A DNA stretch of 64,000 bases from positions 35,913-99,912 of the IMG/VR virus record IMGVR_UViG_3300032240_002557; one strand, given 5' to 3'. Numbering within the stretch: position 1 is the first letter of the stretch; every line of letters starts with the position of its first letter. Under the pieces are notes generated by a model. That model saw nothing but the letters and a program-made list of their open reading frames with translations. It did no database searches and was not told where the DNA came from. Positions 1,739-61,870 of this stretch are shown piece after piece. The stretch is from a virus. The translations under genes were made by a program, and so were the position numbers.

Positions 1739-3164
1739 AATCTAGATATTCGGTATAACCTTCTTGGAAATAATTTAATGCATCTATTCTATATTGGGAT
1801 GCATCTTTTACAATCTTCTCGTTTTTCAGTGGATGCTTTTTACGATCTATTACAGAGTCCGGTATTAAGCCTTTAAACGCACGCTTTAGTATTTCCTTAT
1901 TCTTTCTTAAGTCAAAAGGTAATTGGAGCGCTAGCTGGATTAATTCAAGGTTTAAAAAGGGGTTACGAAGCTCTAGCGTATGTGCCATGCTCATTTTATC
2001 AAGTCTAGGCAGGTGATAATGAGTTAATTCATGAAAAACATCTGATCCTTGAGAATCATATTCGTTTATTCTGCGATAACCTCCAAACATTTCATCAGCT
2101 CCATCCCCAGATAAGACTATTCTTGTATTAGTTCCTTTCTTGATTGCATCGAAGAGAAGATACTGGGGAACTACACTTCCCATATCAATAGGGGATTCGT
2201 TCCATCTAAAATATAATTCAGGTAAGAATTTATCAAATTCTGGGTTATTTGCATCCATTTTATAATCCAAACGATTAACTTTAATACCCCAATACTTTTC
2301 GCATTCCTCGACATATTCGTTGTCCGGTCCATTGTTAATGGTGTACCAACTGACATCTGCACCAAGCTTCATAAGCAATCCGCCTATAATAGAGGAGTCT
2401 AATCCCCCGGAGAGCAAGATAGAGATTGGATAATCCAAGCTTAATAGCCTATTTTTTGTCGATAGCTCAACTTTATTCCAAACCCAATCAAGTAATCCAT
2501 CTTCAGAATCAAATTGAAATATGGGCGCTTTAAATGCGAAATAAGGGCCATATTCTTGTTTGAAAGCCGGAGCAGCAAAATTCCACTTATAAATGAAGTT
2601 TGGCTTTAGCTTTGTGATGTTTTCAAATGGCGTAGATTCATTAGAAACGTATCCCCATTTTCTAACACCCCCCATAAATGATTGATCAACAAAAGAGTCT
2701 TCGTCAATTAATCCTTTCATCTCTGAGCATATTTCGCCCTTGTCGTTATAATAAAGACATTTCTTTCCTAGTGGATCAGTAAAGCAAATAACTTCTTTTT
2801 TGGACATGTCAACTAGACAAATAGCCCAAAATCCATCCCAATTCTTTATATGAGGCTCGTATAATGCAGTAAACATCTCCAAGGATGCAAAGCTGAAGGT
2901 AGAGAACAGATTTACCAAGTATTCTGTGTCGGATCCAAAATCTGGGGGATAATTAAATATTTCCCCATTAAATAATAAATAGCGATCTTTTGATAACTCC
3001 ACTGGTTGGATCCATCCATCACCGATAGCAGTCTGAATTGGTAACCTGTGATGACAAAGGGTTAAACCGCTGGCATCAGAATGTGTGTAATACTCTATCC
3101 CTCTATGAGCTATAGACTTAATTCTCTCCTCTGAAGGATTATGGGCAATAAGGATTCCACACAT
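1725..3164 (-). CDS. asnB: Asparagine synthetase B-like glutamine amidotransferase
   Basis: N-terminal MCGI, HRG, FNGEIFN, LLSGGLDSS, SGDGADEMFGGY, RLDKMSMAHTLELRNPFL. Confidence 0.9.
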   Translation of the reverse strand: MCGILIAHNPSEERIKSIAHRGIEYYTHSDASGLTLCHHRLPIQTAIGDGWIQPVELSKDRYLLFNGEIFNYPPDFGSDTEYLVNLFSTFSFASLEMFTALYEPHIKNWDGFWAICLVDMSKKEVICFTDPLGKKCLYYNDKGEICSEMKGLIDEDSFVDQSFMGGVRKWGYVSNESTPFENITKLKPNFIYKWNFAAPAFKQEYGPYFAFKAPIFQFDSEDGLLDWVWNKVELSTKNRLLSLDYPISILLSGGLDSSIIGGLLMKLGADVSWYTINNGPDNEYVEECEKYWGIKVNRLDYKMDANNPEFDKFLPELYFRWNESPIDMGSVVPQYLLFDAIKKGTNTRIVLSGDGADEMFGGYRRINEYDSQGSDVFHELTHYHLPRLDKMSMAHTLELRNPFLNLELIQLALQLPFDLRKNKEILKRAFKGLIPDSVIDRKKHPLKNEKIVKDASQYRIDALNYFQEGYTEYLDSKIV

Positions 3165-3703
3165 TATTTTAGATTTTTTATTATTGATTGAAAATTAGAA
3201 AGAGATTCGGTGTCGAATTTATTTTCTAGCATAACTATTTTAACCCCCTTAGGAGATAGGTATTCTATGAATTCTAGAAATAGTTCTTTTTCCTCCGGTA
3301 TTCTAGCATCCATATTATCCCAAACGTCTTTGGATCTTTCCTCCGTCGATGTTCCGGTTATGTATACAAATTGGGATCTTTTGAAAAGATCCTGCTCCAC
3401 CATATAATCCAATTCTTTAAAAACAGATTTTTTAGATACTCTCTTGTTTAGTATTCCCCAAACAGAATTAGTGATTACCCCTCTGTCCATAATCAATGGA
3501 CTTAAGAATCCATCTCTGTTTAACTGGTGTACCATTAATTCTTTACCTAGTCCGAGGTGATGCGTTTTATCCCCAGTAGCTGGCAAGCTTAAAGAATTGT
3601 ATAGATTATTAAAGTCGAATTTGAATATAGGAACCCAGCTTTGTGAGTTAACAAAGAATGTCTTTCCTGACTTTCTGGCTCCTTCTACAACAATAAGGGA
3701 CAT
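3164..3703 (-). CDS. Thymidylate-kinase-like P-loop nucleotide kinase
   Basis: IVVEGARKSGKT P-loop and IMDR motif; stop overlaps the asnB start. Confidence 0.65.
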   Translation of the reverse strand: MSLIVVEGARKSGKTFFVNSQSWVPIFKFDFNNLYNSLSLPATGDKTHHLGLGKELMVHQLNRDGFLSPLIMDRGVITNSVWGILNKRVSKKSVFKELDYMVEQDLFKRSQFVYITGTSTEERSKDVWDNMDARIPEEKELFLEFIEYLSPKGVKIVMLENKFDTESLSNFQSIIKNLK

Positions 3704-3714
3704 AAAATTTATAT

Positions 3715-3742
3715 TTTATATCCCTAAATGTATTTATGTTTC
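3715..3742 (-). promoter_or_regulatory. Middle-type promoter GAAAC-N17-TATAAA
   Basis: Matches the recurring two-box motif; upstream of the kinase-asnB pair. Confidence 0.6.
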
Positions 3743-3751
3743 GCGAGAAAA

Positions 3752-5935
3752 CTACGACAGAACTGAGACAAATTTCTTTCTAAAAGCGTCTATATCATCA
3801 TTTACCCCGCCATACCAAGTTGACAATTTACTTGCTAAATGCTTATCTAAAGATTTTGAATATACTGTCTTGTAAGCTTTACTTAAGATGCTAATTGAAT
3901 CACTGCTCCAATTAATACAATCCTTACATGCTCTGCCTGGGTCAGAATCGAATTTACCAAAAGCAACAGCGTATTTAACAGGAACACCCGATTTCATCAG
4001 AATTGATAACCTATCTTTACTGCCATCGTTACCCTTGAATTCATCATTCTTTATGCTATAAAATCCTAGCATCTTATCAAACAATCTTAATGCCGTTCCG
4101 TTTGCATAGAACCTAATTCCATTTGCTGTTGCTACTGCCATTTGACCATTCTTGCCATAATCTGGATTTTCCGTTGCTCCTATCTCTTTAAGTTCTTTAA
4201 CTGCTTGTTCTTTAGACCATTCTTGTTTTGCTTTAGCAACTGCATCATCGATCTGCTTCTTAACAGAGCCTGAAGAAATCTTTGGTGCAGCTTTCATGAT
4301 TTCTTTAGCGTTCTTATTAAGAGTGCTTTTTGCTGCTTTAACATCTTCTTTTGTTGTTGGCTTAGGGCCATCACCGCTGGTTCTTCCAACAGAAGCTTCT
4401 GCAGCTTTCAGATTGAATTCTTCCGAAACAGAAAAGGACTCTTTTAATTTATCGTCATGTGATGAAATCTTATCTATTAATTCTTGCGTGATATCACTAG
4501 ATTTATCCTTAAGCTCAAATCCATTTTTTAGATATTTAATAAGAGCATCTGTTGATTTTCCAAAAATGCCATCTGTACCGTATTTAGCAAATTTGTCATA
4601 TTCTTCAGATTTTCCTTTCAATCCCTTCATTTTGTCAATTGTCAGTTTTTGAAATTTCTTAATGTTATCCTTATCCTTGCTTCCTCTTTTGATTGGTTCT
4701 TTTATCTGAAGATCACTCTTAGTCGTCCCGCCATCTTTCTTACCTGCTTCTTCCTCCTTTTTCTTAGCATCCTCTGCTTGTTTCTTTGCAGTATCAACTT
4801 GGAGTTTAATTTTATAATTATTCATAGCAGTATCTGCCTCAATCTGTAAAGCCTTCTTAGCTCCTTCTGCTCTGTCTAAATGATCTTGCAAAGTAGGGAC
4901 TGCGATTAATACATTAGAATAATCCGCTGATGCTTGTACTTCTGATTTATATGCTGTATTGAACTCTTCTAATTCGTTATTAAACAATGCAACAACAGCA
5001 TTTAATCTCTCTCTTTCAGCCCCCCAATTAACACCCTTTGGATCGATCCCTTCACCAAATTTAGTTTCAAGCGAATTAACTCTCTTGTAAATATTATTGA
5101 AAGCAGCTTCTTTATCTAAAGCTTTTAAATTTCTTTCACCTGGATTATTTCTAGCACTTGCTATTGTGTTCATTACAGAATCAAGTCTAGCTTTTAAAGA
5201 TTCAATATTTGTAATAAAATCTTTTTTATCCCTGTTCGTTTTTCTGTCCTCCTTAGATCCAATTACAAAATCAAAAATACCTTCGTTTACTATTTTAGAA
5301 TATGTTTTAAAATCAACGCAGATGCTGCTATTAGAAAGATGCTCTAAAACGTTATCTGAATTGTATGAAACATCCTGATATGCAGATTCTTGAATTTTTA
5401 TATCGTCGGAAAAAGCCTTGATATATTTTTGAAGAGCTAATTGTACTTCATCAGTCTGCTGTCCTATCACATCTCCAACCTCTTTTGCTTTTTTGGTAAT
5501 ATCATCTATTGCAGCAGTTTCTTCTGCTACCATTTTATTGAACTCTGAAAGCCATTCTTCAAATATTTTAGGATCATATTCTTTCTCTTGAGCAATCTCT
5601 TTTTTAAATCGATCATACTCAGCAACTATACCAGGTAAAACAACACTATTAACCTGAATATCTACGTTTTTAACAGTATCAATTTTAGCTCCAATTGCAG
5701 CTAAATTTGTTTTAAAAGATCTTCTAAAATCCCTTGCAACTTTAGTCGGCGGGTACGTAGACACTGCATATCCGAAATTGCTGATCAATTCTTGAGTTAT
5801 CTTGATCATAGTTCTTGCATAAGCTACATAGCCAAGTCCTTTATCAACGCTTGCTTCAGTAATGCTAGGGTGTACGTAACCTTCAGCTTTTTTTACAAGG
5901 CTTTCAAATAGTGGATTTACGATTTCGTTTCTCAT
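3752..5935 (-). CDS. Putative internal head/ejection protein, coiled-coil, with a peptidoglycan-binding-like motif
   Basis: In a late operon; I/L/V-x-E sites (ITEA, IVNEG, LKES); IKRGS...GTDGIFGKST motif. Confidence 0.5.
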   Translation of the reverse strand: MRNEIVNPLFESLVKKAEGYVHPSITEASVDKGLGYVAYARTMIKITQELISNFGYAVSTYPPTKVARDFRRSFKTNLAAIGAKIDTVKNVDIQVNSVVLPGIVAEYDRFKKEIAQEKEYDPKIFEEWLSEFNKMVAEETAAIDDITKKAKEVGDVIGQQTDEVQLALQKYIKAFSDDIKIQESAYQDVSYNSDNVLEHLSNSSICVDFKTYSKIVNEGIFDFVIGSKEDRKTNRDKKDFITNIESLKARLDSVMNTIASARNNPGERNLKALDKEAAFNNIYKRVNSLETKFGEGIDPKGVNWGAERERLNAVVALFNNELEEFNTAYKSEVQASADYSNVLIAVPTLQDHLDRAEGAKKALQIEADTAMNNYKIKLQVDTAKKQAEDAKKKEEEAGKKDGGTTKSDLQIKEPIKRGSKDKDNIKKFQKLTIDKMKGLKGKSEEYDKFAKYGTDGIFGKSTDALIKYLKNGFELKDKSSDITQELIDKISSHDDKLKESFSVSEEFNLKAAEASVGRTSGDGPKPTTKEDVKAAKSTLNKNAKEIMKAAPKISSGSVKKQIDDAVAKAKQEWSKEQAVKELKEIGATENPDYGKNGQMAVATANGIRFYANGTALRLFDKMLGFYSIKNDEFKGNDGSKDRLSILMKSGVPVKYAVAFGKFDSDPGRACKDCINWSSDSISILSKAYKTVYSKSLDKHLASKLSTWYGGVNDDIDAFRKKFVSVLS

Positions 5936-7980: not shown

Positions 7981-7988
7981 TATATATC
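7981..7988 (-). promoter_or_regulatory. Late promoter GATATATA
   Basis: 16 nt upstream of the 7964 ATG, just past a terminator. Confidence 0.75.
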
Positions 7989-26549: not shown

Positions 26550-28232
26550 TTAAGCCTCCGGTGCTGGTGTTTCAGCAGCGGGCTCTGCAGCAGGCTCGGC
26601 AGCAGGTTCAGCAGCAGGTTCAGCAGCAGGCTCTGCAGCAGGTTCAGCTGCAGGGGTAGCCCCCCCTTCAGTAGCAGTAGTTGCTGATTCCTTACCTTCC
26701 TCCTCCTCTTTCTTCTTGTATATGTCATTAACCCTTCTGTCCTCATTGGTTAATCCTAAGAACTTATCTATAAGGAATCCCTGGTCAAAGAAAGGAAGTT
26801 CTTCCTCTCCAACTTTTTCTTTAATGTCAGAAAGTCCTGCTATAAAATCTATCTTTTTAATTAATTGCTCTATCTCTTTAGATTCCCCAAATTGATTATC
26901 GGAATTAAATTTAATTCCTAATTGGGATCTAAAGATTGGATCCTCACCTAATTCCGGATGATCTAATGTCATCTGAATCCACAAAGGCTTAAGGAGAATT
27001 TCTTGATAGATCGATCTAATTCTATTAATGAATTTATTATATCTAATTTCGTCTCTTTCTGCGGATTCAGCACCAATCTTATAAGTACCAACTGTACCCC
27101 CGGATCTTGCAGCAAATCTGTTAAAAGGAATTTTAGAATCTGCTTTCAATTTATTGAAGAAATAAACTACAGCATCAATAACATTAAGATTTGGACCTGC
27201 GTTATTTATTGTTTCAACCTTAGGAGATTCCCCACCTTGCACAGGAAAAAGATAGTTTTTATAAAACTGAAGTTCTGGTCTACCATTAATACTTAATTGG
27301 CCGGAATCTGTGTTTAAATTGATGTCTTCTTTATACATGCTCATCAATTCGCCTAGGGTTTCTTTTGCTTTTTGCGGTGATCTAGATCCAACAGGAATTG
27401 TCATCTTAATTCTGAAAGAAGCATTCATTACGTTCCAGATAATTCTGGTATGCTCCATAATCTTTAGTAAGTTATGGGATCTAATTAATCTTTCAACATA
27501 ACTGGATCTGCTTGCACTATTTCCTTTAGTAAAAGAGATATAAATTACTTGTGCATCGTATAATCTTCTTTCTTTGGTTGAATCACCATAGTATTGATAC
27601 CAAACTTGTTCTGCCTGTCCTTTAGCGTTTCTTTCAATAGAAGGTGTTAATGAAATTGGATCTAATTCTTTAAATCCTACAATATCTTTTCCTGTATCTG
27701 AATAAACTATTTCAAATGCAAGAAATCCTTCAATCAAAAATTGTCTAAAATATTGCCACGCAGAAATTCCATTATTGAATCCATGAAGAATATACATTTT
27801 TCTAAAATTCTCCCTAAGTGAATCTGCAACTTCATCAGTTAAATCCATATTAACTAACGAAAGATTACAACAGAAATTTCTATCATCATAAACAATCGCT
27901 TCGTCTGCTAAGATATCTAGGATCCATTCTATTTCTGCATTCAAAGAAAAACTTCTTAAAAAATCTCTTTTGAAAGGATAATCCTTATCAAAATAAGCAA
28001 TGTATTTTCTGTTATATGTGTCTTGAGAAGCTAGGCTGAAAATAAAATCTTCATCAGAATCAGTAATAGCTAATTTCTGTCTTAGCATAGCTTCAGAAAC
28101 CCCAATAGCTTGTGAATTTTTGACAACAAGATCTTTGTACTCCATTCCGAAGCTACCAATTTTGCTAACCGCCTTAAGTATACGACCTAGGTTAGGGTTG
28201 CTTATCGAAAAATTGTCTATAAATCCTGCCAT
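26550..28232 (-). CDS. gp20: Portal protein paralogue B (gp20-like) with a C-terminal AAEP repeat
   Basis: EIEWILDILADEAIV, FLIEGFLAFE, ELDP, SYVERLIRSHNLLKIME, KIPFNRF, RDEIRYNKFINRIR. Confidence 0.88.
   Translation of the reverse strand: MAGFIDNFSISNPNLGRILKAVSKIGSFGMEYKDLVVKNSQAIGVSEAMLRQKLAITDSDEDFIFSLASQDTYNRKYIAYFDKDYPFKRDFLRSFSLNAEIEWILDILADEAIVYDDRNFCCNLSLVNMDLTDEVADSLRENFRKMYILHGFNNGISAWQYFRQFLIEGFLAFEIVYSDTGKDIVGFKELDPISLTPSIERNAKGQAEQVWYQYYGDSTKERRLYDAQVIYISFTKGNSASRSSYVERLIRSHNLLKIMEHTRIIWNVMNASFRIKMTIPVGSRSPQKAKETLGELMSMYKEDINLNTDSGQLSINGRPELQFYKNYLFPVQGGESPKVETINNAGPNLNVIDAVVYFFNKLKADSKIPFNRFAARSGGTVGTYKIGAESAERDEIRYNKFINRIRSIYQEILLKPLWIQMTLDHPELGEDPIFRSQLGIKFNSDNQFGESKEIEQLIKKIDFIAGLSDIKEKVGEEELPFFDQGFLIDKFLGLTNEDRRVNDIYKKKEEEEGKESATTATEGGATPAAEPAAEPAAEPAAEPAAEPAAEPAAETPAPEA
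26570..26655 (-). repeat. 12-bp tandem repeat encoding (AAEP)6
   Basis: Visible in DNA and translation. Confidence 0.9.
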
Positions 28233-28234
28233 AC

Positions 28235-29830
28235 TTAAAGTTTGATTTCTCCTTCGGTTTCAGCTGCTGCTTCGCCACCGCCTGCAGCTGCTTCTTCCTC
28301 TTTCTTTTTCTTAGTTAATTCTTTTGCTTTTTCGTTTGCTATCTTGTCATCGTCAGTCATTCCTAAATATTTGTCTAAAACATATTTCAGTGAGAAATAA
28401 GGCTTTCCGTCTGCATCTAGTAGTCCTGCTATTTTAGATACTTGATCCTTCCTAGCATTCAGGATTTCCATGTATCTTGTTTCAGCAAAAGAGTTATCCT
28501 TAACATAATCTAAACCAAATTGACTCTTAATCATAAAATCCTTAGAATGCTCTGGAAAATCTAAACAGAACTGAATCCAAAGAGGTTTTAAAAGTATGTC
28601 TTGGAAAATTGATCTTAATCTAGTTATAAATTTAAAGAATCTTATTTCTTCCTGGTCTAGTCCTTCTGCGTTACCGCTAAAAGTTCCCATTGTTCCCCTA
28701 TCATCCCTATCGAATCTAGAATAAGGAATTTTAGAATCTAATTTCAATTTATCAGCAAAATATGCTAATGCTTTAAGGTCACTAAAAGGCGTAGCATCTC
28801 CGCTACCTGTTAGAGGTGTAATATCCGGCGTTCCGTTAGGTGTTGATGGCATTAAATAGTTCTTAAAGAACTGAATATTTGGTTTACCGTTTACAAATAA
28901 TTCTCCGCTATCCTGATCTAATCTAATATCTTCCTTATAGATGCTCATTAATTCAGCTAAGCTCTGTTTTGCCTTTTGCGGGGATTTAGTTCCTATTGGA
29001 ACTGTCATAGTCATACGGAAAGAAGAATTCATTACGTTCCAGATAACCCTAGTGTGCTCCATAATTCTAAGGAGATTAAAAGATCTAATTAATCTTTCAA
29101 CGTAGCTAACCCTAGAAATAGTATTTCCTTTAGCGTATGAAATATAAAGAATTTGAGAATCGTAAAGTTTTCTTGTTAAAGAAGGATTGTCAGGATATTG
29201 AATCCAGATCTCAACGAAATTACCGTCTATTTGTTTTTCAACGGAAGGGAGTAAAGACTGAGGATCTAATTCTTTAAATCCGATAATATTTTTACCTCTG
29301 CTATCAAAAACTATTTCAAAAGCAAGTATACCATCTATTAATAGACTTCTAAAGAAATGCCATCCTGAAATATCTTCATTGAATCCAAAAAGATTATAGA
29401 TCTGTTTATACCTCTCGTGGATTTTTGCTTCTTTTTCCTCGCCAAGGCCTTTAATATCAGTATTAGTGAAATATGAGAAAAAATTCTTATCGTCATAAAC
29501 AATTGCCTCGTCACAAACTGTATCTAGGATGAATTCAATCTCCGGATTAAGTGCAAAGTTTCTTAGGTAAGTTTTTTTGTTGGCATAATCCCTATCAAAG
29601 TATGCGATATACTGCTTAGCGGTTGTATCTGCTTTCTTTAATGCATAAAGTAGGCTTTCGTCAGTAATTCCCCCTGTTCTAATAACTGCGCTTTCTGAGG
29701 GCCCAATGGCTTGAGAGTTTTTAACTACCATGTCCCCGTAGCTCATCCCAAAGGATCCTATCCTCTTAAGGGAGTTCATCAAATTACTGAAAAACGGGTT
29801 GGTTCTATTATCTTCTAAAAATCCTGCCAT
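28235..29830 (-). CDS. gp20: Portal protein paralogue A (gp20-like)
   Basis: PEIEFILDTVCDEAIV, LIDGILAFE, ELDP, SYVERLIRSFNLLRIME, KIPYSRF, EEIRFFKFITRLR. Confidence 0.88.
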   Translation of the reverse strand: MAGFLEDNRTNPFFSNLMNSLKRIGSFGMSYGDMVVKNSQAIGPSESAVIRTGGITDESLLYALKKADTTAKQYIAYFDRDYANKKTYLRNFALNPEIEFILDTVCDEAIVYDDKNFFSYFTNTDIKGLGEEKEAKIHERYKQIYNLFGFNEDISGWHFFRSLLIDGILAFEIVFDSRGKNIIGFKELDPQSLLPSVEKQIDGNFVEIWIQYPDNPSLTRKLYDSQILYISYAKGNTISRVSYVERLIRSFNLLRIMEHTRVIWNVMNSSFRMTMTVPIGTKSPQKAKQSLAELMSIYKEDIRLDQDSGELFVNGKPNIQFFKNYLMPSTPNGTPDITPLTGSGDATPFSDLKALAYFADKLKLDSKIPYSRFDRDDRGTMGTFSGNAEGLDQEEIRFFKFITRLRSIFQDILLKPLWIQFCLDFPEHSKDFMIKSQFGLDYVKDNSFAETRYMEILNARKDQVSKIAGLLDADGKPYFSLKYVLDKYLGMTDDDKIANEKAKELTKKKKEEEAAAGGGEAAAETEGEIKL

Positions 29831-30402: not shown

Positions 30403-30896
30403 TATCTAAAAATGAAATTTTCATCAATAGCACCAAATTTGTAGCCATTGTTCTTTGCAAATCCCATAGCAGCATCAAATTTAGCCCTATTTACTATCCA
30501 GACCTTCATTTGCTCGTTATGAGCTCTTATTCTCTTCTCTGTCAAATTGCCTTTTAGTTCTGGCTTTTTGTCCAGCTGATACTGTGCAGCTGGTTTAATC
30601 TCTATAATCCAATCCTCTATAGTTCCGTCCGTCTTTTGAACCTTTATGTAATAATCAGGATGATATATGTGAGTTTTTTTGTCTATCGGATTCCAATATT
30701 CAATCTGAACAGCTTCCGAAGCCCATTTTAAAATGTTTGGGTTTCTGTCACAGTACTGACAGAATCTTCCTTCCCAGGATGATCTGTAAATAATGTTGTG
30801 AATATCTCCAATGTATTTTTCAGGACTTTGAGGTACGAATTTTCCAGATTTGAACCTCCCGTTAGGTATAACATTTTTTATATTAACCTTAGACAT
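30402..30896 (-). CDS. gp4: Head completion nuclease (gp4-like, TnsA-type)
   Basis: PEKYIGD, IYRSSWE, WASE, YHPDY, IEIKP, NRAKF. Confidence 0.9.
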   Translation of the reverse strand: MSKVNIKNVIPNGRFKSGKFVPQSPEKYIGDIHNIIYRSSWEGRFCQYCDRNPNILKWASEAVQIEYWNPIDKKTHIYHPDYYIKVQKTDGTIEDWIIEIKPAAQYQLDKKPELKGNLTEKRIRAHNEQMKVWIVNRAKFDAAMGFAKNNGYKFGAIDENFIFR

Positions 30897-31245
30897 TGTA
30901 ATTTTGATTATCGTCTTTAGTTAATCGAGAAAATGGGATCGTTTTAATTGATCTGGTTGAATGTATCTTTTTCCATCCTTTTTGCATACCATTCTTTGCA
31001 ATTTGTGAAATAAAAGCAAATGGATTATCGGATTTAGCTGGGTCAAATCTGTCCCAATATTTAATTAAATCTTCTAGTCCGAATGCTATACAATCTTCTT
31101 TATCTTCGATGTCCCTATAAGATTTTGTCTTTGAAAGACCGTTTACGATTAGTGTAAACATTTTAACAGTCTCAGGAGTTAACCTTCCCTTCTCTTTAGA
31201 TTCTAGTAGCGCCCTCTTTAAATCTTTGTTTTTTACATACTCCAT
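30889..31245 (-). CDS. gp55: Late-transcription sigma factor (gp55-like, minimal)
   Basis: YVKNKDL, KYWDRFDPAKSDNPFAFISQIAKN. Confidence 0.85.
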   Translation of the reverse strand: MEYVKNKDLKRALLESKEKGRLTPETVKMFTLIVNGLSKTKSYRDIEDKEDCIAFGLEDLIKYWDRFDPAKSDNPFAFISQIAKNGMQKGWKKIHSTRSIKTIPFSRLTKDDNQNYNV

Positions 31246-31442
31246 TATGGTTGTTGGAAATTATTTTCTAGACTGCTGATTTGTCTTTCAACATCGTCTT
31301 CTAGGACAGCAAGATTTTTTAATGAATCTTCAATGGCCTTCAATCCTATTTTATGATTAAAATGGCTACTTGTTTCTAATTCTTTTAATTTACCTATGGT
31401 TTGTTTCAGTTCCTCCTGAAAATGAAAAAGTTCGTTACCCAT
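31245..31442 (-). CDS. Short coiled-coil ORF, probably the -1 frameshift extension of 31484..33805
   Basis: Frame stays open back to the A9G run at the upstream stop; its AUG lies in a hairpin loop. Confidence 0.55.
   Translation of the reverse strand: MGNELFHFQEELKQTIGKLKELETSSHFNHKIGLKAIEDSLKNLAVLEDDVERQISSLENNFQQP
31348..31376 (-). promoter_or_regulatory. Middle-type promoter GAAAC-N18-TAAAAT for gp55
   Basis: Intragenic two-box match ~100 nt upstream of the gp55 ATG. Confidence 0.6.
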
Positions 31443-31463
31443 TTCTTCGGCAACGAACTCTTC
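31425..31463 (-). other. 15-bp RNA hairpin (terminator or frameshift-related)
   Basis: GAAGAGTTCGTTGCC-GAAGAAATG-GGTAACGAACTTTTT with three G-U pairs. Confidence 0.65.
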
Positions 31464-31483
31464 ACTATGTTCTAGAATTGTTT

Positions 31484-33805
31484 TTACTTTTTTTTTGCAG
31501 CTGGAGCTTTAGCTAAAGTTGCTCTGTTCAATGGCTCGTGATCTTTCTTACCATTTTTATTATGATTACCTGGTGCTTCAGCTAATTGTGCCTTCTTAGT
31601 TCCAGTTTTTTTAACCTTCAATTTTTTAGCTTTAGGAGCTGGTGCTTTCTCGTAATTAACATTATTTTGAGATTCTGCTAGATTATGATCATTTAAATCT
31701 TCAATAAACTTAGAAGCGTTTGGTGCAGTACCACCTGGTGCATCAGCTAAATTAAAATTTTTCTCATTTTGAATAAACTTCTTATCTTTTCCAGCTTTTG
31801 CGCTAGGTGCTTCTGATAACTCATGATTGCCACTTACTCCTTTAGGATCTTTTGATTTAGAAGAAGTTCTTGCTGGAGCTTCCGCTAATGAATGATCTTT
31901 AAGATTTTCTACGTCTGCTGCAGAACCTGAAGCTTTACCCCCTGGTGCTTTAGCTAAATTTGCATTCTTATTGTTTTCAACAAATTTCTTATCTTTTCCA
32001 GATTTTCCTAATGGTGCTTCTGCTAATTCCATATCAGCATCTAAACCTTCGTTAGTTTCATCATCTTCTGTTAAATCACCAGCTACTTCTAATTTAGCGT
32101 TGCTGATTTCATCAGATATATTGATAACATCGTTGTAGAAAAATTCGCCTGTTCTTCCGTTCTCAAACATTACTGTGTAAGTTTTAGAATTACCATTTAC
32201 ACCTACTACTGTTCCTTTTTCTCCATTTCTTTTAACTTTAACTTCTGTATTAATTTCGTATCCTTCGCTTTCGTTTACTTTACTAATTTTCTTTGCACCT
32301 TTTTCAAATCTTTCTATTTCAACATTGATTTGATTCCATTTTGCTTTTAATTCTGTTGATTCTTTAACCAACATATCTTTTGCTTCTTTAACTTCTTCAG
32401 AATCAGCTAAACGTGGATTAAGTTCGATTGCTTTATTAATCTTGTTCATTTCGTTTTCAACGATTGATAGATTAGCCTTAATCGCCTCTTTGTCATTCTT
32501 CATGATAGAAAGAACTTGAGCTTCTTTTTCTAAAACGTTAGTCATAGATTCAGAAATATCAAATCCTAAGAATTCTTTAACTAAATTAACTGCTTGGCTT
32601 CCGTTTCCTTCTAAAAGTTCATTCTTCTTCATAGCAGGATTTACTCTGTGAACATAAACTTTTTCACCAAATTTAAAGATGTTAGCTTCTACGCCTTCAT
32701 AAACTCTAGAAACGATTTTCTTACCAAAATCAACTTCAGAAAGATAATCAGCTGCAGCTACTACTTCAGTTGCTTGTTCTACAACAGCAGCAGAAGATTG
32801 AAACGAATTTCTCAATTCGAAAGAAAGAACAAATCCTAATTTTTCTTGAGGAATTCTTTTTTCGTTTAAGAATACTGCTTTAGTATCTGTTTCGCTTTCA
32901 AAAACAACAGATAATTTATTTTTACCAATATACATGTCTAATCCGCTTTCGTTAATTTTAACGTTAGGATTAGAAAGTGCTAAAACTGCTTTTAAGAATT
33001 TACCAGGTAATTTAGATGCGTCTGCTCTTTCTAAAACAGATACGCCATTCTCTGTTGCTCTAAAGAACCTATTAGAAGTAACAAAGATTGAAGAATTCTC
33101 AGCAACTAAGCTAGGAGCTATAATGCTCTTAACATCACAATTTTCAGATTTAACTTTGATGCTAAATTTGTTTTGGTTGTTGCTTTCTAAATAGTTAATT
33201 CTTTCAACTAAAGTTCTAACAGTAGGATTGAATCCCCATTTGTTAAGACCTTTTAAAAGCTTTTCAGAAACTTTATCATCTGATGTTAACCAGTTTCTCA
33301 TTGCTTCTGTGATAGTAGAGAAAAGATCTTTACCGCCTGATCTATTGATTTCCTCAATAGCTTTAGCTACTTCAATTTCTCTTCTATTGCTCTCGTATGT
33401 TTTCTTAAGATTATCTAATGCATGTTTAGCATTTTTTTCCCAAGCAAAGTTTTCCAATTCTTGAATCATCCCCTCAATTAAGAATGCCTCTGAAATTCCT
33501 TTAATAGCAACGTGGTTGATGTATTTTTCTGCAAGTACTTTAGCTTCTGCAAGTTCAACAAAACTAGTTTGTTTTAATGCCATTGCAGTTTCAAGCACTC
33601 CAACAGAGAATGATGGCTTAACCATCTTAATATCTTCTGATGAGATTTGTTCTATTTCTTTTTGTCTGCCATCTACATAAGATCCAGCAGCACCTGGATT
33701 AAATCCTTGGTTTCCTCCCCAGCTCTCGTTAAGAAACGCTGCAGCAGCCTTGGCCTTTTCCATTTTTATCTGTGACAGATTATCGTCAAAGTTCATTTTA
33801 TCCAT
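31484..33805 (-). CDS. Large putative head protein with a KOW/SH3-like domain and a Lys-rich LAEAP-repeat tail
   Basis: FLNES, KINES, KVNES sites; EVKVKRNGEKGTVVGV; repeated LA(E/K/D)AP; three late promoters upstream. Confidence 0.55.
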   Translation of the reverse strand: MDKMNFDDNLSQIKMEKAKAAAAFLNESWGGNQGFNPGAAGSYVDGRQKEIEQISSEDIKMVKPSFSVGVLETAMALKQTSFVELAEAKVLAEKYINHVAIKGISEAFLIEGMIQELENFAWEKNAKHALDNLKKTYESNRREIEVAKAIEEINRSGGKDLFSTITEAMRNWLTSDDKVSEKLLKGLNKWGFNPTVRTLVERINYLESNNQNKFSIKVKSENCDVKSIIAPSLVAENSSIFVTSNRFFRATENGVSVLERADASKLPGKFLKAVLALSNPNVKINESGLDMYIGKNKLSVVFESETDTKAVFLNEKRIPQEKLGFVLSFELRNSFQSSAAVVEQATEVVAAADYLSEVDFGKKIVSRVYEGVEANIFKFGEKVYVHRVNPAMKKNELLEGNGSQAVNLVKEFLGFDISESMTNVLEKEAQVLSIMKNDKEAIKANLSIVENEMNKINKAIELNPRLADSEEVKEAKDMLVKESTELKAKWNQINVEIERFEKGAKKISKVNESEGYEINTEVKVKRNGEKGTVVGVNGNSKTYTVMFENGRTGEFFYNDVINISDEISNAKLEVAGDLTEDDETNEGLDADMELAEAPLGKSGKDKKFVENNKNANLAKAPGGKASGSAADVENLKDHSLAEAPARTSSKSKDPKGVSGNHELSEAPSAKAGKDKKFIQNEKNFNLADAPGGTAPNASKFIEDLNDHNLAESQNNVNYEKAPAPKAKKLKVKKTGTKKAQLAEAPGNHNKNGKKDHEPLNRATLAKAPAAKKK

Positions 33806-33827: not shown

Positions 33828-33889
33828 TATATATCTAAGTCGTAAAACCATTTTTTAATGTTTATCTATTTAAACCTATCATATCTATC
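33828..33889 (-). promoter_or_regulatory. Cluster of three late-type motifs
   Basis: GATATATA 33828-35, AATAGATA 33863-70, GATAGATA 33882-89 in a 117-bp intergenic gap. Confidence 0.65.
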
Positions 33890-39839: not shown

Positions 39840-40319
39840 TTAGAATAATGATATTGCCCACTTAAAGAAATGTGAGAACCAGTGGGTTTTGCTCTCTATA
39901 ACGTAAACACCAATCCAAAAGAAAGTTCTTGAAAAAAACCACCAAAAGCTTAAAGCTCTGAAATATGGTGTATAGATTAACAGGTAAGATGTTGAATCTG
40001 GTATTTCTTTATATTCCGGGGTAATTATTTCATGAAGATTTAGTGATGTTAGATATTCGTTTAAACCCTTGCTTTGATCTATTAGATAAGCAGGATATAA
40101 TTCTCTGGGTAGATCTGGAGACATAGTCACCTCTGGAGGTAAATTCATAACTGTATAGATCCTACCTATCCAATCATATCTCAAATTGTGTCTGACCCAA
40201 AGTGGTGAATTTATTTTCTCTTTCTTAATTGTTCTTCTAAGAAAAAGATAATTCTTGACGTCAATGATAACATTGAAGATCTTAAAGATGCTAGAAAAAA
40301 GCTGTTTCATATTAATCAA
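39840..40319 (-). CDS. Hypothetical protein with an aromatic/hydrophobic C-terminus
   Basis: 159-aa ORF overlapping the sigma gene end; LRYDWIGRIYTVMNLP. Confidence 0.55.
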   Translation of the reverse strand: MINMKQLFSSIFKIFNVIIDVKNYLFLRRTIKKEKINSPLWVRHNLRYDWIGRIYTVMNLPPEVTMSPDLPRELYPAYLIDQSKGLNEYLTSLNLHEIITPEYKEIPDSTSYLLIYTPYFRALSFWWFFSRTFFWIGVYVIESKTHWFSHFFKWAISLF

Positions 40320-40938
40320 TAAAATTTAATTTGATACCAGGGAACATTTCTCTGATTTTAATTCTTGCTCTTCTAATTCTTGTTGCAACTGCACGTTTTT
40401 TCATTCCGTACTTATCAGCAATATCTTGGTACTTCATCTTGTGCAATTCCCTATCAATTAGAATGTCTTTATAAATTGCTGGTAAATTTTTAATCTTACA
40501 AACTACGTCTTCGTAAAGATCGTCAAATCCTCCTTCCCTATTATCTATCTCCCATTCAGGTTCAGAAAATATATCCTCTGGTGTAATCGATGATAGAGGA
40601 ATAAATTCATCATAATCTCTTCCGTCTAATTCAACTGATTCATAAACTAGAGGAGTGAATTTTTTAGAATTCTTTTTGATCAGTAACGATTCATTTCTTG
40701 CAATATTGTAAGCCCATGTAGAAAAATTTCCTCTTGCTGGATCATACTGAGCAACTTTAACCCAAATCTTTTCGAATGTTTTAGATACTGCATCTTGTGC
40801 AACTTCCTCATCTATCAAAATAGATTTACAGTGATTCAATAAACCAGGTTTAATTCTGTCGTAAAGAGATTTAAAATCTTTTTCGTGTGTCGTCTCTAAG
40901 AATTTTTCTGCCAATTCTTGGATGCTCTTTGATGCCAT
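40312..40938 (-). CDS. Phage-encoded ECF-type sigma-70 factor
   Basis: Region 2: AQDAVSKTFEKIW...YDPARGNFSTWAYNIARN; region 4: LPAIYKDIL...MKYQDIADKYGM..AVATRIRRAR. Confidence 0.9.
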   Translation of the reverse strand: MASKSIQELAEKFLETTHEKDFKSLYDRIKPGLLNHCKSILIDEEVAQDAVSKTFEKIWVKVAQYDPARGNFSTWAYNIARNESLLIKKNSKKFTPLVYESVELDGRDYDEFIPLSSITPEDIFSEPEWEIDNREGGFDDLYEDVVCKIKNLPAIYKDILIDRELHKMKYQDIADKYGMKKRAVATRIRRARIKIREMFPGIKLNFID

Positions 40939-61639: not shown

Positions 61640-61846
61640 TTATTTAACTTCTTCAGTTTTTCCTTCCTTTAAAGGTGCAGATGTTGTTACACTATCCGCT
61701 GGGATTTGAGCAGTTGTTGAATCTGTAGCTGATACTGCAGATGAATCAACTTGAGCAGCTGTTGAATCTGTTGTTGTTTCTTTTGTAGATCCGTTTCCGC
61801 ATGATGTTAATGCTAAAACTGATAAAATAACGAATACTTTTTTCAT
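61640..61846 (-). CDS. Small lipoprotein, Ser/Thr/Ala/Asp-rich
   Basis: MKK, hydrophobic core and LTSC lipobox; repeated DST/DSS/DSV. Confidence 0.8.
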   Translation of the reverse strand: MKKVFVILSVLALTSCGNGSTKETTTDSTAAQVDSSAVSATDSTTAQIPADSVTTSAPLKEGKTEEVK

Positions 61847-61870
61847 ACTTGTTTTTTTTTTAATTTAGGT

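Follow-up and report, generated by a model that had tools for sequence, protein, structure and literature searches.

A probable programmed -1 recoding site, conserved as nine adenines, one base and a stop codon, in uncultured T4-like phages

The present analysis concerns a 64-kilobase (kb) stretch, hereafter the window, of a 99.9-kb virus record from IMG/VR (IMGVR_UViG_3300032240_002557); all positions are given in the coordinates of this window, and all genes in this part of it lie on the minus strand. It indicates that a gene of 773 amino acids (aa; 31484..33805), located upstream of a gp55-like late sigma factor gene, very probably carries at its 3' end a programmed -1 recoding site which yields a C-terminally extended isoform, and that this site is real, ancient and well conserved. 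The gene would normally end at the TAA that immediately follows GCA AAA AAA AAG, and some decoding events would go on in the -1 frame, adding 80 residues and giving an isoform of 853 aa. The added part would consist of a short linker and a two-helix hairpin module, placed at the end of a long disordered tail. The proposal that two isoforms are made through a -1 shift came from an earlier reading of the window on its own, referred to below as the original prediction, and it is now strongly supported by the exact conservation of the site, by an open frame devoid of its own start and by a coding signature in approximately 50 distinct relatives.

The recoding site and its conservation

The 3' end of the 773-aa open reading frame (ORF) reads GCA AAA AAA AAG TAA. 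The recoding site (31487..31496, minus strand) is composed of a run of nine adenines (A9, 31496..31488) and of the following G (31487), with the heptamer A_AAA_AAG at 31493..31487, and the zero-frame TAA (31484..31486, minus strand) abuts this slip site, in the position known as a "shifty stop". The A9 run before the stop, the open -1 frame and its junction with a 65-aa ORF, all described in the original prediction, were confirmed in the minus-strand sequence. Runs of at least nine A are depleted in the window (two sites, corresponding to three overlapping matches, vs approximately 14 matches expected), which indicates that the site is more than a chance occurrence. The run at the gene end is the only one of that length inside a gene in the window, and in-frame A-runs are otherwise avoided in this phage. 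The other site is a run of ten (A10, 61852-61861, minus strand) in an intergenic leader, which precedes the ATG at 61846 by 6 nucleotides (nt). In-frame A_AAA_AAG heptamers were also found at three other places within genes (37670, 39204 and 45680, minus strand); they are probably not programmed, because their -1 frames close early, after 16, 1 and 8 codons, respectively.

Scanning IMG/VR with the single protein as a query found nothing and an alignment was needed; the alignment-based scan provided 80 loci and, with the window, 76 were readable through the gene end. In 68 of these 76 loci, the gene ends in NNA AAA AAA AAN followed by a stop, with a run of exactly nine A (ten where N is A), and a stop codon (TAA, TAG or TGA) adjoins the slip site in every locus that has one. 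An in-frame slippery heptamer is thus present, which appears as A_AAA_AAG, AAC, AAT or AAA in the relatives. At the codon level, 46 distinct contexts were compared with a background made of the gene bodies. The run counts exactly nine A in each of the 46 contexts. Codons -3 and -2 are AAA in all of them (vs 74% in the background), codon -4, itself variable (ACA, TCA, GCA, AGA, CTA), invariably has A in third position (vs 37%), and AAG is used for the last Lys in 37 of 38 cases (vs 26%). The gene bodies of the relatives contain no other A-run of at least nine.

A second and unbiased sample, anchored on the arms of a downstream hairpin alone (see below), gave 26 distinct contexts, with A9 in 24 of them, A13-C-A9 in one and A11 in one short contig. 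This A11 variant (L139, Ga0007753_1397729, 1.2 kb), as well as an A8 run inferred from a public protein call (P0146), may be a sequencing error or real heterogeneity. An in-frame A10 consensus was found in none of approximately 70 independent contexts, a result which bears on two other explanations of the site. According to the first, the true genome would be A10 and would encode one continuous 853-aa protein, the missing base being an assembly or sequencing error. Homopolymers are indeed error-prone in some chemistries, but the A9-N-stop arrangement recurs in dozens of assemblies made independently, by several centres and from various samples, which carry A9 and not A10; this concern, raised together with the original prediction, can practically be set aside. 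According to the second, slippage of DNA polymerase on A9 would generate an A10 sub-population of genomes, i.e., a contingency locus with heritable and reversible phase variation. Homopolymer tracts of at least six bases mutate faster in T2, T4 and other phages (bioRxiv 10.1101/2025.10.21.683753), and the A11 contig and the implied A8 could be taken in the same sense. However, neither of these two variants brings the extension into frame, no ON/OFF polymorphism of tract length was seen, and the absence of any A10 genome, as well as of any fused protein, argues against such a locus. Purifying selection on the downstream frame would, moreover, be hard to sustain if expression came from rare mutants only, and we consider phase variation to be very unlikely.

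Coding capacity of the -1 frame

The -1 frame extension (31245..31487, minus strand) comprises 80 codons followed by a TAA at 31247..31245, and includes the 65-aa ORF (31245..31442). Read from 31487, it gives VKTILEHSEEFVAEE, then the M at 31442, bringing the product to 773 + 80 = 853 aa; TILEHSEEFVAEEMGNELFHFQEELK is an example of a peptide spanning or following the junction. This frame is open over 57-86 codons in all 68 slip-site loci, the +1 frame closing within 7 codons, while in the 8 loci without the run the -1 frame closes after 3-24 codons. Conservation in related genomes, which had been suggested as a check, was thus borne out, the homologues keeping both the slip site and the open -1 frame. 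In the eight codons past the zero-frame stop, 44 contexts taken together display no stop in the -1 frame, vs 30 in frame 0 and 76 in +1; in shuffled sequences, the number of contexts with a stop averaged 24.8 and was at least 15. The ratio of non-synonymous to synonymous polymorphism (pN/pS) is 0.50 in the extension frame, vs 0.85 and 1.32 in the other frames, and it amounts to 0.49, vs 0.77 and 1.39, outside the embedded regulatory elements described below. Invariant residues of the extension are written with several synonymous codons. The predicted fold comprises an 11-residue linker and two helices (residues 13-44 and 49-76), with a predicted local distance difference test (pLDDT) score above 90 in the core. 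A conserved, coding frame without a start of its own is thus found to begin at the shift site.

Alternatively, the downstream ORF, which counts 65 aa in the window, may be an independent small gene with its own initiation codon; the run of A would then reflect either a Lys-rich C-terminus in an AT-rich genome or an A-rich leader, such as is found in hosts devoid of Shine-Dalgarno (SD) sites. An ATG is present in the window at 31442, gene callers do call such ORFs (the public calls for the extension ORF range from 44 to 113 aa), the phage makes no use of SD sites and has A-rich leaders, and the KKK terminus is itself conserved in the protein. Nevertheless, this ATG is replaced by ATA, ATC, ATT, ACA or other codons in most relatives: 30 of the 46 distinct extensions have no ATG, 39 have none in their first 30 codons, and three are devoid of any ATG, GTG or TTG. 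The frame is stop-free from the very first codon past the slip site, which a downstream start does not need, the synonymous positions of the A-run are fixed, and the ATG of the window lies within the loop of a stable hairpin. A separate gene is therefore most improbable, and the small "hypothetical protein" annotated upstream of gp55 is, as judged from these sequence comparisons, the C-terminus of the trans-frame isoform.

A large protein collection provided 120 homologues of the 773-aa protein (425-1353 aa), all unnamed, nearly all of which end in ..APxxKKK or ..KKN, and none of which carries an in-frame fused extension. Searching proteins of 150-2000 aa with a profile of the extension revealed no fused form, which constitutes weak evidence. 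Homologues of 843-849 aa, considered as possible fusions, were rejected, as their C-terminus differs and the slip site is absent.

Distribution and age of the site

On a tree of the main protein (quick maximum-likelihood, midpoint root only), the slip site is present on both sides of the deepest split, the stem branches of which measure 1.28 and 0.63 substitutions per site. Those loci that lack the slip site fall into two separate, nested clades, so that two losses would be the simplest reading. These relatives (8 loci) have no copy of the extension, and their spacers have stops in all frames. A distant clade (L069-L080) has kept A9-C/T-stop, but with a different extension of 57-62 aa, in which codon positions 1, 2 and 3 vary in 28, 17 and 46 of 57 columns, respectively, again a coding signature. 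In the 462-kb uncultured phage LR756500.1 (L241), a 617-aa homologue (2015-4264), lacking both the disordered tail and the site, sits 21 nt upstream of the gp55 homologue. The gene pair remains syntenic well outside the recoding family, which may point to a functional link between the two genes.

Regulatory elements within the extension frame

Inside the extension ORF lies a covarying RNA hairpin (31422..31465, minus strand), in which 31465..31449 pair with 31439..31422. Its 12-base-pair core (31460..31449 with 31439..31428) closes a 9-nt loop (31448..31440), at the 3' end of which is found the ATG of the 65-aa ORF (31442..31440). The hairpin is more stable than shuffled sequences (z = -3.6), core pairing is observed in 94.7% of cells vs approximately 40% in slid controls, and 6 of the 12 core pairs change on both sides, some of these changes altering amino acids (F/E to S/R) with pairing kept. 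A search of Rfam returned sub-threshold noise only. On the 3' side of the stem, a U-rich but interrupted stretch is present (TTTTTCATTTTC; TTTTGTTTTA in relatives), and the codons past the stem are constrained towards T (TTT in 34/34, GTT in 19/19). The terminator scan did not flag the hairpin of the window because its loop exceeds 8 nt, and the slip-site-free relatives have canonical terminators at the same position. The stem begins 21 nt, and the conserved core 26 nt, past the slip site. From this arrangement, the hairpin is most likely a terminator, or a 3'-stabilising element, within the extension frame and not a classical stimulator. The reservation made in the original prediction, namely that it is too distant for a typical stimulator and may be a terminator, thus holds, in line with the terminators that relatives carry there. 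Such a hairpin would end or stabilise the transcript and, if it acts as a terminator, the full long form would be made from read-through transcripts only.

The extension also overlies what appears to be the control region of gp55. A promoter-like box, GAAAC-N18-TAAAAT (31348..31376, minus strand), is located in the ELETSS..KI codons of the extension. Each of the 40 distinct extensions of the coiled-coil type has it in the form GAAAC-N18-TA(A/G)(A/G)AT, with 97-120 nt between its end and the gp55 ATG, and it overlaps the most conserved peptide stretch (ELETSS..GKI). A similar box is present in the non-coding spacers of slip-site-free relatives (L015, L016, L018, L019), 69-73 nt before the ATG, and GAAAC-N17/18-TAAAA(T/A/C) was found upstream of gp55 in every configuration, including the distant clade (L069, L073), where it is likewise in non-coding DNA. 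A loose version, GAAAC-N15-19-TANNNT, is not enriched window-wide, the case being founded on conservation upstream of gp55. The box is probably the gp55 promoter, and it is perhaps read by the phage's own extracytoplasmic function (ECF)-like sigma factor (40312..40938). Closer to gp55, its leader contains the A-rich element AAAATAATTTCC (31256..31267, minus strand), from which the conserved NNF(P) terminus of the extension is translated as well; the same element (AAAATAATTYCC) also precedes the gp55 ATG in the non-coding spacers of slip-site-free relatives. Finally, TAATG joins the extension stop to the gp55 ATG, confirming the overlap that had been described. In view of the conserved box and of the A-rich leader element, gp55 is most likely served by a promoter and a leader of its own, independent of frameshifted ribosomes. 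The translational coupling to gp55 put forward in the original prediction, although possible, is consequently unnecessary, stop/start overlaps being routine in this genome.

These elements could suggest that the region is purely regulatory, made up of a terminator, the gp55 promoter and its leader, and that it is untranslated, the open frame being a by-product of nucleotide elements. The hairpin, the GAAAC..TAAAAT box and AAAATAATTYCC are indeed kept even in non-coding spacers, and the peptide stretches conserved most strongly are those that they overlap. Against this, an 80-codon open frame is found in 46 distinct AT-rich contexts, whereas equivalent spacers have stops in all frames; synonymous codons are used for invariant residues, the fold is predicted with confidence, and no role is left for the invariant A9-stop. 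As the coding signature persists outside the regulatory blocks, the frame appears to be both coding and regulatory, and the notion of an untranslated region is barely tenable. A further, rather unlikely scenario is that the extension frame was laid over a former intergenic control region of gp55, the level of shifting tuning both read-through and gp55 synthesis. If true, shifted ribosomes would cross the terminator hairpin, then the promoter and leader of gp55, before stopping on the gp55 ATG, and the rate of shifting, depending on A9 slippage or on how fast termination occurs, would create a feedback between late-gene translation and the late sigma factor.

Mechanism of the shift

Two routes may lead to the long isoform. 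The ribosome may slip back by one base on A_AAA_AAG, with the stop codon waiting in the A site, or RNA polymerase may insert a supplementary A in transcribing the nine-A run. The product predicted is in either case the same protein of 853 aa (..AKKK-VKT..). The comparative evidence upholds the -1 shift advanced in the original prediction, and is compatible with ribosomal frameshifting and with slippage of RNA polymerase alike. Several observations point to polymerase slippage: the whole A9 is kept, and not the heptamer alone, including a position that is synonymous only; any base may follow the run (G, C, T, A); the canonical stimulator is absent; and three other in-frame A_AAA_AAG heptamers are tolerated in genes. 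The run also reaches the approximately nine or more A/T in the coding strand that are expected for transcriptional slippage. A run of nine A/T matches the length of the RNA:DNA hybrid and slips efficiently in vivo, and A_AAA_AAG is, on the other side, the most shift-prone heptamer in Escherichia coli (PMC5009743). In favour of ribosomal slippage are the strong preference for G, against codon usage, and the invariance of the adjacent stop. Two tRNA-Lys species are usual in Bacteroidota, a situation that would be unfavourable to slippage on A_AAA_AAG. Overall, we lean slightly towards polymerase slippage alone, which is plausible; ribosomal frameshifting alone is a possibility of lower standing, and a joint contribution of both comes somewhat below it.

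Whatever the route, a number of points weigh against a programmed recoding site. The basis of the call is comparative only, and the efficiency of shifting could be very low. No stimulatory RNA structure is found 5-9 nt downstream of the site, the hairpin being 21-26 nt away, and the distant clade with the same site has no significant hairpin. Upstream of the A9 run there is no hairpin, no SD-like element and no conserved element. Part of the conservation of the extension stems from the overlapping hairpin, promoter-like box and gp55 leader, and the linker directly after the site shows no third-position bias. Lastly, owing to the ATG at 31442, a free-standing 65-aa product is also possible in the window.

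The 773-aa protein and its genomic context

The AlphaFold2 (AF2) model of the 773-aa protein displays a folded part (residues 1-570 approximately), followed by a disordered tail of about 200 residues ending in KKK. This tail (31484-32100, minus strand, residues ~570-773) contains approximately eight xL[AS]xAP motifs spaced by 20-25 residues, and in the distant clade a motif of this type is carried on into the -1 extension (VWAFAP, MSVAP). Searches of PHROG and Pfam with the 773-aa protein and with the extension gave nothing meaningful, a gp33-like match being absent; no fold match was found by Foldseek in the PDB, and the ESM Atlas gave no usable match for the 773-aa protein. Its matches in BFVD are uncharacterised myovirus proteins, including some from Tenacibaculum phages. 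The "head protein" label initially given to this product is therefore unsupported, as there is no match in PHROG, Pfam or the PDB and those in BFVD are uncharacterised viral proteins only.

Upstream of the gene, a late-promoter-like motif, GATATATA (33828..33835, minus strand), ends 22 nt before the ATG. It precedes about ten start codons, that of the portal gene included, at distances of 7-28 nt (mostly 15-21), and 14 of its 15 copies in the window are on the gene strand (minus-strand positions 7981, 11914, 15312, 22181, 29846, 33828, 38523, 49517, 54371 and others). It is a candidate late promoter, by analogy with the T4 TATAAATA, and, since the 773-aa gene has this motif in common with the portal gene and others, it may be expressed late.

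The gp55-like late sigma factor gene (30889..31245, minus strand) matches phrog_234 and Sigma70_r2, and is followed by gp4, gp2 and two portal genes. The latter are adjacent (26550-28232 and 28235-29830, minus strand), and each is assigned to the T4-type portal family by a match to phrog_213 (E = 1e-57 and 1e-60). By portal protein, the nearest relatives are huge uncultured phages and Prevotella Lak phages; a DNA search of curated phage records gave no match. In the window, only 2 of 52 main ORFs are preceded by an SD-like core and leaders are A-rich, which suggests a host, probably Bacteroidota-like, that does not use SD sites. The phage lineage is related to the megaphages that infect Bacteroidota, and its hosts probably make no use of SD sites.

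Comparison with known systems

Full-text literature searches found no description of this site or family, but its kind is already well known from dnaX, T7 10A/10B, lambda G/GT and phage A2. The tau and gamma products of dnaX are obtained in E. coli by a -1 ribosomal frameshift at A_AAA_AAG, and in Thermus thermophilus by transcriptional slippage on a run of nine A/T, while some dnaX candidates have a zero-frame stop directly after the shift site (PMC5009743). The present site resembles dnaX in its A_AAA_AAG embedded in A9, in the two products of one gene sharing their N-terminal part and, for some dnaX candidates, in the adjacent stop. It differs in that the gene family is unrelated, the shifted frame gives the longer product, there is neither an SD-like element upstream nor a stem-loop 5-9 nt downstream, and the host probably does not use SD sites. 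Programmed transcriptional slippage is also known in insertion sequence (IS) elements and in type III secretion genes of Shigella, where it takes place on runs of 9-10 A/T. As in these systems, the run has the length of the RNA:DNA hybrid, nine, it is kept as a run and the next base is free; unlike in them, an adjacent stop is invariant here, which that mechanism does not require. With the contingency loci of phages (bioRxiv 10.1101/2025.10.21.683753), the site shares a homopolymer tract inside a phage gene, but natural genomes exhibit no ON/OFF length polymorphism and the downstream frame is under purifying selection.

The closest parallels in phages are the isoforms generated by frameshifting at the 3' end of a gene, such as the T7 capsid proteins 10A/10B, gpG/gpGT of lambda and the major head protein of Lactobacillus phage A2 (cited in PMC10885494 and PMC5009743). 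Here, too, the shift site is at the very end of the upstream frame, the C-terminally extended form would be minor, and the extension has no start of its own. By contrast, the 773-aa protein would not necessarily be a virion component, a homopolymer of nine A abuts the stop, and the extension overlies the regulatory region of the next gene. Two features are unusual, namely the minimal A9-N-stop signal and the superposition of the extension frame on three elements: the terminator-like hairpin, the promoter-like box and the late sigma factor leader. The recoding signal described here, reduced to A9, one base and a stop, is deeply conserved in uncultured T4-like phages and is unusually minimal among natural signals of its type. 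Its recognition corrects the annotation of a whole protein family, and shows that one stretch of DNA can serve as a coding frame while containing a hairpin similar to a terminator, a promoter-like box and a translation leader. The site also offers a clean test case for telling ribosomal from polymerase slippage.

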